Assembly (NCBI GenBank): GCA_040390045.1
Contig: JAZJZC010000004.1
Coordinates: 579-64,578, forward strand
DNA: 64,000 nt
Direction: 5' to 3'
Source: Patescibacteria group bacterium
Lineage (GTDB): Bacteria > Patescibacteriota > Minisyncoccia > Phycocordibacterales > SIBU01
The translations under genes and the position numbers were made by a program. The notes under the pieces are model-generated. The model was not told where the DNA came from. It worked only from the letters and a program-made list of their open reading frames with translations, and did not search any database. This document shows, piece after piece, positions 758 through 42,291 of the stretch; position 1 is the stretch's first letter, and every line of letters begins with the position of its first letter.

Positions 758-1675
758 TTGATTAAGTCGAAGTTAAATTTAATGATCTCCGCCTTTAAAA
801 AAGTTTTCTCTCTCTCGTTGGTTTTTCCATTGGTGGCTTTCGCATACCAAAGTCCCGGTAGCCCGACAGGTTTCGTGAATGACTTTGCAAATCTTTTGAG
901 TCAGCAGGCGCACGCCACGCTTGAATCCAAGTTGACCGCGTTTGAAAAAACCACGGGAGATGAAATCGCAGTAGTAACTGTTAAAAATCTTGGGGATGAA
1001 ACTGTTGAGGATTTTGCCGTGGCGCTTTTTAAGGAATGGGGAATTGGTGAAAAGGGGAAAGACAACGGTATTCTAGTTCTTGTGGCGGCAGAGGAACACA
1101 AAATTCGTATTGAAGTTGGTTACGGGCTTGAAGGTGATCTGACGGACGGAGAAGCCAGTTCAATCATCAGGAACATCATGACGCCAGCATTTCGTAACAA
1201 CGACTATGATGGTGGCATCCAAACTGCTGTCGATCAAATTATTGCCGCAGTCGCTCCCGATTACGCTTCGGGTGCGGGGATTGAGATCGAACCTATCTCA
1301 GAACAATCTGGTGAGGGTTTCGACTTCTCAAATATTTTTTTCTTTATCTTTTTTGTACCGATTTGGTTGGGCAGTATTCTCAGTCGTTCTAAGTCATGGT
1401 GGGCTGGGGGACTTGTCGGAGGGGTTATTGGCGTAGTACTTGGATTTATTTACGGTTTTTTGTATCTTGGTTTGATCGCGACCATTTTCCTTATCCCAAT
1501 CGGTCTGTTGTTTGATTTTTTGGTTTCTCGAACCTATACTAAAAGTACTAGTCGCGGTATCCGCCCACCATGGTGGATTGGAGGTGGAAGAATTGGTGGA
1601 GGTGGCGGAGGTTCTTCATTTGGAGGGTTTGGTGGCGGGGGAAGTGGTGGAGGTGGTTCTAGTGGAAGCTGGTAG
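758..1675 (+). CDS. TPM domain (phosphatase-like) membrane protein with Gly-rich C-terminal tail
   Basis: Carries a TPM_phosphatase-type motif (GDEIAVVTV...GILVLVAAEEHKIRIEVGYGLEG). This is followed by TM segments and a GGGSGGG-rich tail, and it is paired with lemA. The true start may be the internal ATG near 782. Confidence 0.65.
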   Translation: MIKSKLNLMISAFKKVFSLSLVFPLVAFAYQSPGSPTGFVNDFANLLSQQAHATLESKLTAFEKTTGDEIAVVTVKNLGDETVEDFAVALFKEWGIGEKGKDNGILVLVAAEEHKIRIEVGYGLEGDLTDGEASSIIRNIMTPAFRNNDYDGGIQTAVDQIIAAVAPDYASGAGIEIEPISEQSGEGFDFSNIFFFIFFVPIWLGSILSRSKSWWAGGLVGGVIGVVLGFIYGFLYLGLIATIFLIPIGLLFDFLVSRTYTKSTSRGIRPPWWIGGGRIGGGGGGSSFGGFGGGGSGGGGSSGSW

Positions 1676-2351: not shown

Positions 2352-2399
2352 TTGAAAGATTAAGGATTTAAGACTACAGTAATAGTCTCTTGTTTACAT

Positions 2400-2486
2400 G
2401 GAGAGATGCCAGAGCGGTCGAATGGGCCACCCTGGAAAGGTGGTATGTCCGAAAGGGCATCGAGGGTTCGAATCCCTCTCTCTCCG
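2400..2486 (+). tRNA. tRNA-Ser (anticodon GGA), type II long variable arm
   Basis: Hand-folded structure: acceptor GGAGAGA/TCTCTCC, anticodon stem CCACC/GGTGG with loop CTGGAAA, long variable arm, T-arm GAGGG-TTCGAAT-CCCTC. Confidence 0.8.
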
Positions 2487-2491
2487 CAATG

Positions 2492-2528
2492 AACCGCGCG
2501 AAAGTCTAAACGACTTTCGCGCGGTTCA
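2492..2528 (+). terminator. perfect hairpin aaccgcgcgaaagtc-taaac-gactttcgcgcggtt immediately after tRNA-Ser
   Basis: A 15 bp perfect stem is visible in the sequence. Confidence 0.5.
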
Positions 2529-2535
2529 TCATTGC

Positions 2536-2657
2536 GTGGAGAGGGAGGGATTCGAACAGCAGAGTAAAATTTTTAGCAGAAAATTTTGTGAGCTGGTGCC
2601 CAGCCCGAGTTCGCTGACGAGCGAACGAGAGGTGCGGGCGAATCTCCTACCCTCCGC
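2536..2657. repeat. tRNA-3'-associated element, copy E1 (cognate tRNA-Ser GGA)
   Basis: Starts with the reverse complement of the tRNA-Ser T-arm/acceptor (ggagagggagggattcgaac). Ends with a direct copy-like sequence (ggcgaatctcctaccctccgca). Contains the shared core gagctggtgcccagcc...gagtcg...ttttctgct(a/g)aaaaa (reverse complement). Confidence 0.6.
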
Positions 2658-2714
2658 AATAGAGTTTTGATAAGAGTGTGACTTGAGTACCTAAAAGGAT
2701 CACTTTAAGTTAGA

Positions 2715-5320: not shown

Positions 5321-7216
5321 TCACTTTTGATCAGGAGTCTCAAGCATTTTCAAAAGCTCAGAAGTTTTAGCGGTTGCTACGCCGACAACTAAATCTGCCG
5401 CACCGTAGTAGAAAAATAACGTATCACCGCGCTCAATCACTCCACAGGGGAAAACTACGCCGGGCACGATACCTTTCCATTCATAATCTTCAACTGGTTC
5501 AAAAATCGGAAAGACGGAACGGGCGAGCACCACTGTCGGATCATTTTTATCTAGAAGAGCTACTCCGACTCGGTAATGTGTGGTGTTTGAGACACCGTGA
5601 TAAAAGAATAACCAACCTTTTTTAGTTTCAACTGGTGGACAGGCCAGGCCAATTCTGCCGCCATCCCACATGCCGCGACGAGGGTGGAGGAGTGGAATAC
5701 AGGTACGTACTGGTTCATTTTTCCAATCGAGAGAATCGACAAAGTCGGCGCAGATCAAATCATCAATACGGTGAATAATCATGTACTTGCCATTTATTTT
5801 TTTCGGGAGAATACAGGCATCTTTGTTGCCCACGGAAGCAAAGGTGATGAGACTTGGCGTTGACCAATTCCACTCGCCGTTTTGCAAATCTTTGACCGAG
5901 ATAGATGTACCGGCAACGCGAGGCGTGTTGCCATCGTACGCGGTGTAGAAAACATGAACACGATCTTTGATGAGTGTGGCGCGTGGGTCTTCACAACCCT
6001 TACTTTCAAAATCAACACGCGGAGTATAAATAGGTTTTTCTGATCGTTCGTCAATTGAAAAACCATCAAGCGACGTGGCGAGGCCGAAAGTTGAAATGTT
6101 GTCGCTCGAAACTGCGCGATAAAAAATATAAATTTTACCGTCAATTTCTACTGAGGCCGGATTAAATGTACCACGAGTTTCAAAGGCTTTATCGGGGCGG
6201 GGACTGATGATCGGATTATTTGGTCCGCGAACAAAAAGTGGCTTTTTCTCTACCATTGAGGCGAGGAATTTTTTTAAGTTGACGCGGGCGATGCAGGAGT
6301 GAGTATCAGCCGCACCGTAATAGATTTCTAAATTTTCGTCGGAAATTATGGCGCCGGTTGGGAAAATAATGTTTGGCACTTGCCCGACGCGTTCGTAATA
6401 TTCTTCAGGCACCAAAAATGAACCCTTGGTTCTGCCAATGATAAGACGCGGATTGTTTTTGTCCAAAAGTAGGGCTTCCACACCAAAACTTCGGTCACCT
6501 TGAAAATAATTTTGAATATGAGAGTACACCACAAGCCAGCCGAGCGACGTCAGAATGGGCGGCGCGCCGAGTTCCACTTGTTCGTTATTTCCGCGACGAA
6601 CGTTTAGGGTATGAAGAGAAATATCTCTTTTCCATTTCTCCCAAAACTCGGGATTCCACATGTCAGATTCTTTTTCGAATTCAACGTAGCAGATTTCAGA
6701 CGGCGGTTCGTCGGTGCGAATGGTAAGGAGTGCTGCGAATTTACCACCAATCTTTTTTGGAAACAGCGCCATGGCTTTGGCGTTAAAGGGAGTAATGGAA
6801 TGTTTCTCCATAATTTCCATTTTCTCGTTGACTTTGGCGAGAGCAATACGAATACCGTCTTTTTGAACGGGGTACATTGAAAGTGCGGTATAAAAAATAT
6901 AGTGAATTTTGTTGAAGGTAGTTACTCGAGCATCTTCACAACCGAATTTTTCCCACTCATGTTCGGGAGTGATGAATTCTTGACGATTGTCGAAATGCTG
7001 ACCGTCAGAACTTTGCGCCAGCCCGATCGTCGACACTGAACGTCTCACTCCGTCTTGCAGTTTCGATTCAGATTGCGCGCGATACACAGCGGCTGTTACG
7101 GGAGATTTTCCAACTGGAGGAATTGGACACCAATTAAAACTGCCAGCGGATTCCCATTCGTGGTGAACTTCGGGGGAGAGGATTGGATTGTGTTTATCGC
7201 GTTCAATTACAAACAT
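5321..7216 (-). CDS. glycoside hydrolase family 130 protein (glycoside phosphorylase-like), tandem two-domain
   Basis: Two GH130 repeats, each with NP(I/L)LSP, GCEDPR/GCEDAR and YYGAAD motifs. 631 aa. Confidence 0.7.
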   Translation of the reverse strand: MFVIERDKHNPILSPEVHHEWESAGSFNWCPIPPVGKSPVTAAVYRAQSESKLQDGVRRSVSTIGLAQSSDGQHFDNRQEFITPEHEWEKFGCEDARVTTFNKIHYIFYTALSMYPVQKDGIRIALAKVNEKMEIMEKHSITPFNAKAMALFPKKIGGKFAALLTIRTDEPPSEICYVEFEKESDMWNPEFWEKWKRDISLHTLNVRRGNNEQVELGAPPILTSLGWLVVYSHIQNYFQGDRSFGVEALLLDKNNPRLIIGRTKGSFLVPEEYYERVGQVPNIIFPTGAIISDENLEIYYGAADTHSCIARVNLKKFLASMVEKKPLFVRGPNNPIISPRPDKAFETRGTFNPASVEIDGKIYIFYRAVSSDNISTFGLATSLDGFSIDERSEKPIYTPRVDFESKGCEDPRATLIKDRVHVFYTAYDGNTPRVAGTSISVKDLQNGEWNWSTPSLITFASVGNKDACILPKKINGKYMIIHRIDDLICADFVDSLDWKNEPVRTCIPLLHPRRGMWDGGRIGLACPPVETKKGWLFFYHGVSNTTHYRVGVALLDKNDPTVVLARSVFPIFEPVEDYEWKGIVPGVVFPCGVIERGDTLFFYYGAADLVVGVATAKTSELLKMLETPDQK

Positions 7217-26361: not shown

Positions 26362-26519
26362 CACGTATAAAACATCGACAGATGTTTTATACGTGTGCGG
26401 GAATTGAAGCCCGATTGAGCATTTTTTCTAGTTTCTGAACGTAGAAAAAATCCAATCGCGGGTACTGAAACTGTAAGTTTCGATTCTCCCTATCCGCACA
26501 ATTACATTATAAAATTTAA

Positions 26520-29839: not shown

Positions 29840-29868
29840 CAAATGAGCGGAGCGAATTGGCTTGGGAA

Positions 29869-30092
29869 GCACGAGAATAATTTCTCGTGAGTCCAGATTC
29901 GAACGCCGGAACGATGCCGAGCCAGCAGGCGAGGCCGTGAGGCGGTGGCCAGAAAAATTTTTTTGGCGAAAAAAATTTATTCGCGGCCGAATCTGTTCCT
30001 ATTTTCTCACCAGAAGAAACTGGCGAGCTGGTGGGCAGACCGGGGTGAGTGACGACGAACCTTGAGTCGCGCCCGAATCTGTCCCGCCCAAG
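29869..30092. repeat. tRNA-3'-associated element, copy E2 (cognate tRNA-Phe)
   Basis: Begins with gcttggga[hairpin]ccagattcgaac, the reverse complement of the tRNA-Phe 3' end with a hairpin inserted. Ends gcccgaatctgtcccgcccaag (direct copy-like). Contains the shared core gagctggtgggcagacc...gagtcgcgcccgaatc. Confidence 0.6.
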
Positions 30093-30513
30093 TAGTATTT
30101 CCTTGATTGTTCAGCTACAATTCATCAAGACCCCAGTGTCTGGAAAGGAGGTGTTCTTACTCAGTTTTATATTATGATTAAATTAAATAAAGCGTAAAAA
30201 GCCCCGCGGGCGGTCGACATGGGTTAATTCCCAGAGTCTTCTTCGGGATTGCGTTCACGCCTTAAATGAATTAAGTAGATGTCATGCCTGTTGCTTACTG
30301 CTTTGGCTCTTTGGCGTTAGGAATATGCTGTTGTACCCTACCGAAGGATGCTATGCCACGCTACCTTTGAGGATTAACGCTCCTCGTAAAAAAGGCAAAC
30401 AATAGAGAAGGAAACTTCTGGGCTTTCGAGTCAGCCCCAGGTGAAGGGAGCATATCTGCATCCCAACTCGAATCGAAGGGACGGCAAGACAAGTCTTGCC
30501 GTCCCTATACATT

Positions 30514-39689: not shown

Positions 39690-39844
39690 GGCGGAGGAGG
39701 GGGTGAGATTAGGTCACAAGTATTTTCTTGCTAGAAAATCTTGCGACCCCGCCTCGCGCCGTCGCGCTCCGGCTTTCGAATCCCCCTCCTTGCTCGCAAT
39801 GATGAACTGCTCGGACTTCGTTTAGAAGTCCTTACAGCTCATTG
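39690..39844. repeat. tRNA-3'-associated element, copy E4 (cognate tRNA-Ser CGA on minus strand)
   Basis: The far end (ggcggaggagggggtgagatt) is a reverse-complement copy of the tRNA 3' end. The middle contains an opposite-strand T-loop/acceptor copy (ggctttcgaatccccctcc) and the gcgac...gtcgc hairpin seen in other copies. More divergent than E1-E3. Confidence 0.45.
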
Positions 39845-40110: not shown

Positions 40111-40310
40111 CAAAAATAATGAGGGCGTTGCGAAGCAATGACGGATTTTATTTTTGTAGACACTGCGGGGAGTCGAAGGACGGAGCGGAATGAGACTCAG
40201 CAGAGTCGAACCGCGAGTCGGGGTCGCGGAAATTTCTGAGCGAGGGCGAAGAAATTATCTGTGACCGAAAGCGTACTCGCGGCTCCCAGTTAAGGTCACA
40301 AAAGCGGTTT
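40111..40310. repeat. tRNA-3'-associated element, copy E5 (cognate tRNA-Glu)
   Basis: Contains gcggggagtcgaaggacgg (reverse complement of the tRNA-Glu T-arm), the core-like agagtcgaaccgcgagtcggggtcgcgg, and a distal gtcacaaaagcgg resembling the tRNA 3' flank. Confidence 0.45.
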
Positions 40311-41909: not shown

Positions 41910-41926
41910 CATTGAGTCCACGAAAT

Positions 41927-42082
41927 GTGGGCGGTAAGGAGGCAAATTGTTTTGCCTCCGTGAGGATTCGAACAGCGGAACCATGTTTTTTCAGCAGAAA
42001 AAACAGGTGAGCTGGTGTCCAGACCAAAGTGAGCGACGGCGAGCTTTGAGTCGCGGGCGAATCCTTTACTTCTACCGCCCAC
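41927..42082. repeat. tRNA-3'-associated element, copy E3 (cognate tRNA-Val)
   Basis: Begins with gtgggcggtaagg (reverse complement of the tRNA-Val acceptor 3' end) and ggattcgaac. Core: caggtgagctggtgtccagacc...gagcgacggcgagc...gagtcgcgggcgaatc. Ends ttctaccgcccac, identical to the tRNA-Val 3' end. Confidence 0.65.
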
Positions 42083-42291
42083 AAAATCAGAAATAAAGTT
42101 TGTCCTCGTCCTATCCCGTCTCGGACTACCTCGTCGGGTAATAGGCGAGGAACCGGGGCAAACTTTGTTGTAGATGTGTCGGCTCCGCCGATTCATGCGT
42201 GCGTTGCGGATTCATCCCCGCCACAGACGGACGGGTGTTCTCCGCAGTTACAATAAAAAACCTCCGCCTAAGCAGAGGTTGGGGACAGAGA

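Follow-up and report, generated by a model that had tools for sequence, protein, structure and literature searches.

The DNA behind tRNA-Ser(GGA) in the window (the whole stretch of DNA that was analysed, 64,000 nucleotides) holds a strongly folding element of about 120 bases, E1 (2536-2657, plus strand). E1 is the tRNA-Ser(GGA) member of a Patescibacteria-wide family of structured modules of about 100 nt, which follow tRNA and tmRNA genes in their 3' flank, on the same strand as the tRNA. The arms that enclose each core are polymerase-type copies of the 3' end of the local tRNA-type gene. Judged by their absence from the literature and from Rfam, these modules are apparently a new kind of element. 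The reading we prefer, at a probability of roughly 0.4, is that they are miniature, protein-less insertion elements, active as a folded single strand, that enter tRNA genes at the T loop and whose core is kept by selection.

The E1 locus was found to comprise the following features.

2352..2380, plus strand: promoter-like site TTGAAA-17-TACAGT, 20 nt 5' of tRNA-Ser, the only such site near the locus
2400..2487, plus strand: tRNA-Ser, anticodon GGA (ARAGORN; Rfam tRNA model, 57 bits); CCA not encoded
2466..2490, plus strand: template block A (T loop, 3' strand of the T stem, 3' strand of the acceptor, discriminator and CAAT), from a repeat search; copied in both arms
2489..2529, plus strand: spacer hairpin, a perfect 18-bp stem (2489-2506 / 2512-2529) with the 5-nt loop TAAAC and no U tract, from the repeat search
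2531..2557, plus strand: 5' arm, A-prime, a reverse-complement copy of tRNA positions ~53-73 plus trailer, ATTGCGTGGAGAGGGAGGGATTCGAAC (repeat search; own-tRNA specificity)
2539..2654, plus strand only: E1 as recognized by covariance model R1 of the family (94.8 bits at E 3.6e-21, spanning model positions 1-118 of 118; E1 was itself among the training copies)
2557..2595, plus strand: helix P2, with a CAGC/GCUG base, a conserved G(G/A)A / GA internal loop, a variable AT-rich apical hairpin and the loop AGCAG (fold; consensus structure; covariation)
2598..2639, plus strand: helix P3, with a GCCC/GGGC base, an inner helix and the apical hairpin GUUCGCU-GACG-AGCGAAC (fold; compensatory changes across the family)
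2639..2660, plus strand: 3' arm, A-double-prime, a decayed direct copy of tRNA positions 56-73 plus CAAT (repeat search, 77%; comparison with loci L034 and L049)

A preliminary description of this stretch had seen behind tRNA-Ser an imitation of the tRNA 3' end, first inverted and then direct, and this was borne out with slightly corrected coordinates. The inverted copy at 2538-2557 (GGAGAGGGAGGGATTCGAAC) shows 95% complementarity over 20 nt to tRNA-Ser 2466-2485, and the direct copy at 2639-2660 (CGAATCTCCTACCCTCCGCAAT) shows 77% identity over 22 nt to tRNA-Ser 2469-2490. The arms pair with one another at just 71% (2538-2554 / 2639-2655). The inverted match was specific to its neighbour, with a flank score of 35 against its own tRNA and at most 23 against the other six tRNA 3' ends of the window. 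The limits of the element, given as 2536-2657, coincide exactly with the ends of the predicted closing helix. The perfect hairpin reported between the tRNA and E1 is indeed present and perfect, but it has 18 bp at 2489-2529 and not 15 bp at 2492-2528. It had also been regarded as a separate spacer; it was found to be the centre of a long palindrome that runs from the T loop of the tRNA into the 5' arm of E1. The loop and flanks of this hairpin are also present in the spacer behind tRNA-Ser(CGA). No coding capacity was found in E1, whose direct repeats flank just ~150 nt of non-coding DNA, and the ORFs that follow it had no Pfam match. A GH130 protein of the window shows 100% identity to one annotated as patescibacterial, its weaker matches also being from Patescibacteria. 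It was used as a route to orthologous loci, and the relatives reached in this way had no tRNA-Ser neighbourhood.

The same plan (tRNA, spacer hairpin, inverted copy, core, direct copy) was encountered behind six of the seven tRNAs of the window, which carries six elements and not three. When each flank was scored against all seven tRNA 3' ends, it best matched its own tRNA, except for tRNA-Arg(CCT), the sole window tRNA without an element, which has a plain terminator instead. The five elements besides E1 are as follows.

26395..26500, plus strand: element of tRNA-Gly(CCC), type III core, same architecture as E1 (flank scoring, fold)
29860..30093, plus strand: E2, behind tRNA-Phe, a full type I core at 29886-30003, with a partial further core and another 3' arm after it (115.6 bits, E2 being a training copy)
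39690..39797, minus strand: element of tRNA-Ser(CGA), type II core, weakly homologous to type I (flank scoring, fold; 28.2 bits, E 2.6e-4)
40165..40301, plus strand: element of tRNA-Glu, type II-like core, with a AAGCGTACTCGCGG insert in the 3' arm (inverted score 28 against at most 17 for other tRNAs)
41924..42083, plus strand: E3, behind tRNA-Val(GAC), type I core with an extra hairpin in the 5' arm (-84.2 kcal/mol, z -8.8; 116.1 bits, E3 being a training copy)

The preliminary description had recognized E1, E2 and E3, and their likeness held: they share the core GAGCTGGTGCCCAGCC with at most three mismatches, where 0.14 matches are expected by chance, and their similarity is significant under the covariance model (94.8, 115.6 and 116.1 bits, scores that are partly circular because the model was built from 16 copies including these three). 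The family is larger than these, with divergent-core copies behind tRNA-Gly, tRNA-Ser(CGA) and tRNA-Glu and about 110 distinct copies in Patescibacteria. An AT-rich string, TTTTAGCAGAAAATTTT, that had been listed as common to E2 and E3 did not hold up. It has three loose matches in the window, none of them at E2 or E3 (the E1 copy itself and two away from any tRNA), and 17 of 100 shuffles reach that count. This string is the apical hairpin of helix P2, which is kept as structure and not as sequence.

We then consider the range of the family. Model R1, which describes the type I core, gave 129 matches across the window and 99 loci, 110 of them distinct, including 94 distinct sequences beyond the 16 training copies. 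With one genome per species, a 22-base core pattern was encountered at 15 places, 13 of them in Patescibacteria (Saccharibacteria, Uhrbacteria, Nomurabacteria, Minisyncoccia and unclassified members). The other two have neither a 5' arm nor a flanking tRNA and resemble chance matches. A second core pattern gave 117 loci in metagenomes, and viral contigs yielded 0 matches to the core pattern. As far as these searches reach, the core family appears restricted to Patescibacteria. It was noted that no family of Rfam 15, ribozymes and riboswitches included, matched the core at gathering thresholds over the window and 18 loci, and a permissive Rfam scan (E up to 10) of the E3 region placed nothing on the core. 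No gene family recurs beside the copies, the largest neighbour clusters being housekeeping genes. None of the copies had a linked transposase, integrase or reverse transcriptase, and no autonomous transposase-bearing relative was encountered within 2.5 kb of them.

The consensus fold is a three-way junction of helices P1, P2 and P3. P1 consists of the T-stem imitation and GAUUCG/CGAAUC and is followed by the junction nucleotides AA. Across the family, P2 has CAGC/GCUG, a conserved GGA/GA internal loop and a variable hairpin whose loop is often AGCAG, followed by the junction GU; P3 has GCCC/GGGC, an A/GC internal loop, GAC/GUC and a variable hairpin with the loop GACG or GAGCGACGGCGAG. Standard pairs occupied 94.0% of the cells in 110 distinct sequences, compared to 71.3% after column shuffles and 33-45% with partners slid by 1-3 columns, and 30 of the 33 pairs showed changes on both sides, in 781 cells; the alignment behind these values was fitted to the model. 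In many copies the acceptor and T-stem parts of the 5' arm are separated by an additional hairpin, with the loop ACUGCU in 39 of 104 copies. This loop is complementary to the AGCAG loop of P2, and a kissing interaction between them was considered and rejected, as 209 of 300 partner permutations reach the observed value.

Across the family, G-U pairs were more numerous than A-C pairs (105 vs 38), which indicates that the folded strand is the tRNA strand, as RNA or as sense-strand DNA. It had been suggested that the minus strand be folded; the tRNA strand gave the better fold both for E1 (segment 2533-2660, -56.4 vs -48.1 kcal/mol) and for E3 (-84.2 vs -71.9 kcal/mol), and for E1 none of 200 shuffles was as good (z = -5.7). 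It is scarcely credible, in view of these values, that the element is a tRNA-like gene or pseudogene of the minus strand or a duplicated tRNA "top half", even though the minus strand of E1 folds well (z -4.7) and carries GTTCGAATCC-like strings: it is the less stable strand, the G-U excess lies on the other one, and ARAGORN and Rfam RF00005 called no tRNA on an element of the window on either strand.

The covarying core also bears on a reading at the level of DNA, in which the locus is a palindrome that acts, behind tRNA genes of high expression, as a cruciform, bidirectional terminator or insulator, and the core has no RNA role. The long palindrome formed by the tRNA 3' end, the spacer and the 5' arm would suit such a role, as would the half of the spacers that look like bidirectional intrinsic terminators. 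We consider this quite improbable, since a terminator would not need a three-way junction of ~100 nt in which the G-U bias is strand-specific and 30 of 33 pairs covary. Moreover, E1 has no U tract and no terminator call, and element-free tRNAs manage with plain terminators.

The association with tRNA genes was assessed for 97 evaluable distinct cores, of which 75 have a same-strand tRNA within 450 nt upstream (median gap 60 nt, mostly 30-90 nt; 26 anticodons). Ser isoacceptors account for 27 of these 75. Several "orphan" cores (L012, L024, L076) lie behind tRNAs with long anticodon-loop insertions (introns), and at L013 the element stands behind a tmRNA gene whose own T-loop variant is copied. 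The arms differ from locus to locus and match the local tRNA: direct copies had a median score of 13.5 of 19 with their own tRNA, compared to 6 with other tRNAs, and were perfect in 10 of 66. The identical block begins at T-loop position 56 (or, in a core variant, at 60/61) and in most cases stops 0-8 nt beyond the called end of the tRNA, an extent like that at integration sites. The 5' arm reaches back to position 53 and tracks unusual T loops such as AATCGAA and AGTCGAA. Among the tRNAs at these loci, a biased set, 81 of 140 carry an element. A link to encoded CCA was considered and set aside, with CCA encoded by 13 of the 81 tRNAs with an element and 12 of the 59 without.

Non-Watson-Crick pairs of the tRNA stems (G-U or mismatched) distinguish the two possible origins of the 5' arm. 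Family-wide, the arm has the complement of the 3' strand at 30 such pairs and the base of the 5' strand at 8, so it is a copied complement of the tRNA 3' end, as the preliminary description had held, and not a duplicated top half of the tRNA.

The boundaries of the copied block bring to mind a further reading, in which the elements are decayed attachment-site scars of islands or prophages that carried an integrase. Their direct repeats extend from the T loop as far as the tRNA end, the targets include a tmRNA gene, and islands use these sites in relatives, with a large serine recombinase at L051 and a 1.5-kb insert at L018 (a 192-aa ORF in L018 has no Pfam match). Against this, only 100-250 nt of homologous, covarying, non-coding core lie between the repeats, one core occurs at 26 anticodons in many lineages, and simple integration yields no inverted copy. 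We give this reading very little credence; integrase scars, like terminators and a minus-strand tRNA-like gene, are poorly supported.

The arms and the core were found to behave differently over time. Of the T-stem positions, 85% are paired between the 5' arm and the tRNA, and 80% are identical between the 3' arm and the tRNA. Compensation between the arms is nearly absent: the 5' arm pairs with the tRNA only in 29 cases, with both in 19 and with the 3' arm only in 4. These counts fit a decay of the two arms independently of each other. Selection that keeps the 5' arm, and not the 3' arm, on the tRNA was considered as an explanation and rejected, because 29/19/4 fits the independent decay of two copies of a conserved template. 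Comparison of L034 with L049 shows replacement of the spacer and 5' arm next to a conserved core and 3' arm. In E1 and in L047, the 3' arm resembles the tRNA-Ser(GGA) 3' end found in other lineages more than that of its present neighbour, and on these comparisons both 3' arms appear to preserve an older tRNA-Ser allele. The pattern at L047 and E1 is also explicable by one recombination tract over the tRNA, the spacer and the 5' arm.

Larger rearrangements were encountered as well. L010 and L081 hold perfect tandem units of block A, spacer, 5' arm and core, in which the last direct copy carries a different trailer. L076 carries two units, compared to one each in the near-identical L095 and L114, a difference that assembly collapse could also explain. 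L015 and L020 are composites of type I and type II cores with extra direct copies. Among near-identical contigs, the search for an orthologous pair of empty and occupied sites gave no clean case, only the tandem copy-number difference and an unrelated recombinase island.

Whether the module is transcribed with its tRNA is relevant to any role as RNA. No promoter-like site lies between tRNA-Ser and E1, and no terminator-like site (GC-rich hairpin plus U tract) lies in 2250-2760. With a single promoter-like site 5' of the tRNA, the simplest reading is that E1 is probably co-transcribed with tRNA-Ser, as far as the arrangement of sites can tell. In 34 of 66 copies the spacer has a terminator-like hairpin and U tract, so transcription of the element is not assured across the family. 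Of the ORFs next after an element, 49 share its strand and 30 (38%) are convergent, and this mixed orientation argues that the module belongs to the tRNA and not to the downstream gene.

These contexts are central to the main rival, a cis-acting bistable RNA on the pre-tRNA, which we regard as a serious though doubtful alternative. In this "anti-acceptor" switch, the 5' arm would alternate between the 3' strand of the tRNA and the 3' arm, and the core would decide between them, perhaps via a protein or small molecule, to tune tRNA maturation or quality control. On the tRNA 3' strand, the 5' arm would block tRNA folding or 3' processing; on the 3' arm, it closes the junction. The two duplexes are near-equal in energy (mean best duplex of the 5' arm with its two partners -26.6 vs -26.1 kcal/mol; 66 copies), and the hairpin of tRNA 3' end and 5' arm forms in the minimum-energy fold of the whole tRNA-element transcript. 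The junction nucleotides are conserved in an aptamer-like manner while the helices covary, high occupancy and orthologous positions suggest selection at the level of the host, and E1 has no terminator after its tRNA and a single upstream promoter-like site. Several observations weigh on the other side. The module is transcribed only after the tRNA had time to fold, and the terminator-like hairpins and U tracts noted in 34 of 66 copies precede the 5' arm. The arms decay by roughly 15-20% with no compensatory co-evolution, the replacement between L034 and L049 took the spacer and 5' arm and left the core, and three core types with one arm design would be odd for a single ligand sensor.

A different RNA role would make the module an independent small RNA gene, with the tRNA-like closing helix as a processing signal ("tRNA punctuation") at which RNase P, RNase Z or the CCA-adding enzyme would free a trans-acting RNA of ~120 nt from a tRNA read-through transcript. 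The closing helix reproduces the acceptor and T stems, the 3' arm retains the discriminator and the following CA, the sense-strand structure is under selection, and the core is conserved in situ as the arms drift. We judge this improbable, as the helix runs on through the discriminator and trailer (~10-11 bp in E3), so that no free single-stranded 3' end is offered as in a tRNA substrate. There is also no T loop or elbow, and tRNA models gave no match to the element: in the E3 region, on both strands and at E up to 10, the tRNA model found the genuine tRNA alone. Such a gene would furthermore have no reason for its helix to match the neighbouring tRNA.

Under the preferred insertion reading, the active form would be a folded single strand, as RNA or sense-strand DNA, which would enter a tRNA-type gene at the T loop. 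The tRNA 3' end would stay intact, the copied block extending from T-loop position 53/56 to a few nt beyond the discriminator. A polymerase would copy this block once inverted and once direct, and the helix that closes the core would by this copying become a double-stranded replica of the acceptor/T-arm strand of the tRNA. The enzyme would be supplied in trans. After insertion, the arms would slowly decay and the core would be retained by selection, either for further spread or through co-option of the trailer RNA by the host. Insertion at the T loop is suggested by where the copied block begins and ends, by the tmRNA target and the arrays, by distal copies that are fossils and by core subtypes that move among tRNAs. 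Against it, the presence of same-tRNA copies in different classes, and of intact cores beside decayed arms, points to long residence and host-level selection over ongoing mobility.

Further observations run against insertion. No enzyme is linked to the copies and no empty site was recovered. The tandem units could also arise via unequal crossing-over between direct repeats, and repeats may collapse in assembly. One core at more than 26 targets needs re-templating, for which no demonstrated mechanism can be named. Patescibacteria genomes are small and compact, and for such genomes the occupancy in the window (six of seven tRNAs) is very high. The missing enzyme, the missing empty site, the unexplained re-templating and the long residence with a selected core also keep the bistable switch alive. 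A bolder version, which we hold to be unlikely, is a natural, protein-less, programmable insertion module whose core would carry or re-copy ~20 nt of the tRNA-type gene that it entered, home to the T loop by pairing (as RNA or single-stranded DNA) and regenerate the tRNA. This would be a mobile element guided by pairing and specific to Patescibacteria, possibly co-opted by now as a maturation switch for each tRNA.

We compared the element with known systems that share one or more of its features. Integrases directed at the T-loop region of tRNA or tmRNA genes leave attL/attR repeats around islands and prophages. The element is similar in that its duplicated block runs from the T loop to a few nt past the 3' end, which leaves the tRNA intact, and in its tmRNA target, its tandem or nested arrays and a distal copy that may be a fossil of an older gene end. 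Unlike such islands, it lacks an integrase and cargo, has only ~100-250 nt between its repeats and includes an inverted copy as well; a single homologous core that covaries recurs at 26 anticodons, and within a genome the majority of tRNAs are occupied. Folded single-strand sites that mimic a duplex target include the CTX-phi attP hairpin and integron attC, and insertion sequences guided by pairing include the IS200/IS605 family with its small PATE/REP derivatives and the bridge RNA of IS110. The order direct, inverted, body, direct is the expected trace of the integration of a folded hairpin site. As in these systems, the structure of one strand is conserved over its sequence, the element is small, non-coding and multi-copy, and complementarity to the target is built in. 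It differs in having no Xer, IntI, TnpA or IS110 gene linked to the copies and, by eye, no dif or R-box consensus, and in a pairing segment of ~20 nt that is different at every locus. Compared by eye to attC, its GTT/AAC ends are in opposite polarity. PATE/REP elements have constant subterminal hairpins, whereas those of the element vary with compensatory changes, and unlike a MITE it has no terminal inverted repeats common to all copies, its arms being locus-specific.

Among RNA systems, riboswitches and attenuators, whose logic uses three pairing segments that exclude each other, resemble the element in a conserved junction and a closing helix whose 5' strand has an alternative partner of near-equal strength. 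However, the element lies 3' of the RNA that it could control and is not a 5' leader, a convergent gene then follows 38% of copies, and no ligand is known for it. Mimics of tRNA and trailer-derived RNAs include bacterial Y RNA/YrlA, MALAT1 mascRNA, viral tRNA-like structures and 3'ETS-leuZ of E. coli. The element shares with these the linkage to tRNA genes or the imitation of acceptor and T arms, but it has no T loop, D loop or elbow and no tRNA-model match, and it imitates the exact sequence of its neighbour and not a generic shape. The primer-binding site of retroviruses and LTR retroelements is 18-21 nt exactly complementary to the 3' end of a specific tRNA and can be re-templated from that tRNA. 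The 5' arm likewise complements a specific tRNA 3' end; in contrast to a primer-binding site, it adjoins the tRNA gene itself, has a second direct copy, excludes CCA and is accompanied by no reverse transcriptase or LTRs. A full-text literature search gave no description of such an element at tRNA genes. On this result, and because it misses a defining feature of each testable known family, the element is rated as a new kind.

Patescibacteria (CPR) make up a large share of the diversity of bacteria, and their tiny genomes have little DNA to spare. Most tRNA genes examined in them carry a conserved folded module tailored to their own tRNA. If mobile, the module would represent a new means by which elements select a target and repair it through base pairing, with potential interest for genome engineering; if a cis-acting RNA, it would add a previously unknown layer to the control of tRNA biogenesis. 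Either way, it constitutes a large unannotated family of RNA type that affects the annotation of CPR tRNA flanks, the prediction of att sites and repeat-induced misassembly in metagenome-assembled genomes.

The similarity among cores was found to follow tRNA identity weakly, with the nearest neighbour having the same anticodon in 10 of 52 cases, compared to 2.9 expected. The core of E1 is nearest to the Ser(GGA) elements at L034 and L049 (80% identity). That of E3 is nearest to cores of Lys, Pro and Ile tRNAs elsewhere (79-84%), with 58-61% identity to E1 and E2.

The family of folded non-coding elements in the 3' flanks of Patescibacteria tRNA genes was also encountered behind a tmRNA gene, where the arms copy that gene's own T-loop variant and acceptor end. 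Patescibacteria tRNA genes for Met, Asp, Thr and His with insertions of 200-360 nt in the anticodon loop were further predicted, and a family member lies downstream of three of these four (Met, Thr and His).

L013 977-1094 (-): family member behind the tmRNA gene at 1165-1559 (-), type I core covariance model score 59 bits
L012 2081-2382 (-) and 3616-3899, L024 9754-10037, L076 9910-10364: tRNA genes with anticodon-loop insertions (ARAGORN, introns allowed)

Nine related loci (L011, L023, L037, L038, L058, L064, L066, L068 and L104) carry orphan cores, for which no upstream tRNA was called. These cores have in common a string of the form ..GGTTCGAA/GCGTTCGGATTT..GTACA.., followed by a hairpin and located about 60-150 nt upstream of the core. 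The shared string may belong to an RNA gene that has escaped recognition, or it may be what is left of a tRNA-like end after degeneration.

Among tRNAs bearing an element, the tRNA-Ser isoacceptors together account for 27 of 75. It was also noted that ARAGORN called several tRNA-Ser genes with anticodon ACT in L022, L031, L040, L043 and L070; this anticodon, with A at position 34, is unusual among bacteria.

Three window elements possess the common arm design with differing cores, which were assigned to types II and III.

26395-26500: element behind tRNA-Gly(CCC)
39690-39797 (-): element behind tRNA-Ser(CGA)
40165-40301: element behind tRNA-Glu
40262-40285, and L021 about 1370-1395: conserved 3'-arm insert AAGCGTACTCGCGG, mini-hairpin GCG-UACU-CGC

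The type II core (..CGCGAGGCGGGGTCGC..GTGACC) was found again in L015 and L020, there as a second module. The insert, which separates the T-loop part of the 3' arm from its T-stem part, is carried by unrelated copies, namely the window Glu element and the Arg element of L021, and strings resembling it were observed in L032, L037, L041 and L082. Recurrent GA-rich loops, GAGCG(A/G)AGCGA(A), were noted in the spacers of the window (29846-29858, GAGCGGAGCGAA), L013, L038, L047, L087 and L104; they include the GCGAAGC mini-hairpin motif and lie at the centre of the palindrome in which the 5' arm mirrors the end of the tRNA.

Immediately 3' of E3, the type I copy behind tRNA-Val(GAC), we identified a further structured stretch.

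42092-42169: stretch of about 78 nt closed by a 15-bp stem, AAAGUUUGUCCUCG.../...GGGGCAAACUUU

Its folding energy is -33 kcal/mol, with z scores of -3.9 (plus strand) and -4.1 (minus strand), and Rfam returned no match for it; it may be an additional module or a structured RNA without a terminator.

Larger inserts were likewise found at tRNA sites.

L051 6876-8510 (-): large serine recombinase, 544 aa, with Resolvase, Recombinase and Zn-ribbon domains
L018 490-2030 (-): AT-rich 1.5-kb insert between tRNA-Ile(TAT) and its element

The recombinase gene adjoins the 3' end of tRNA-Leu(CAG) (6884-6970). L026 shares 94% identity with L051 in the upstream flank, and there the small element occupies the corresponding position. 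The L051 locus looks like a classical island at the site used by that small element. The L018 insert encodes one ORF of 192 aa, for which Pfam gave no match, and a degenerate T-arm repeat is located at its distal end.
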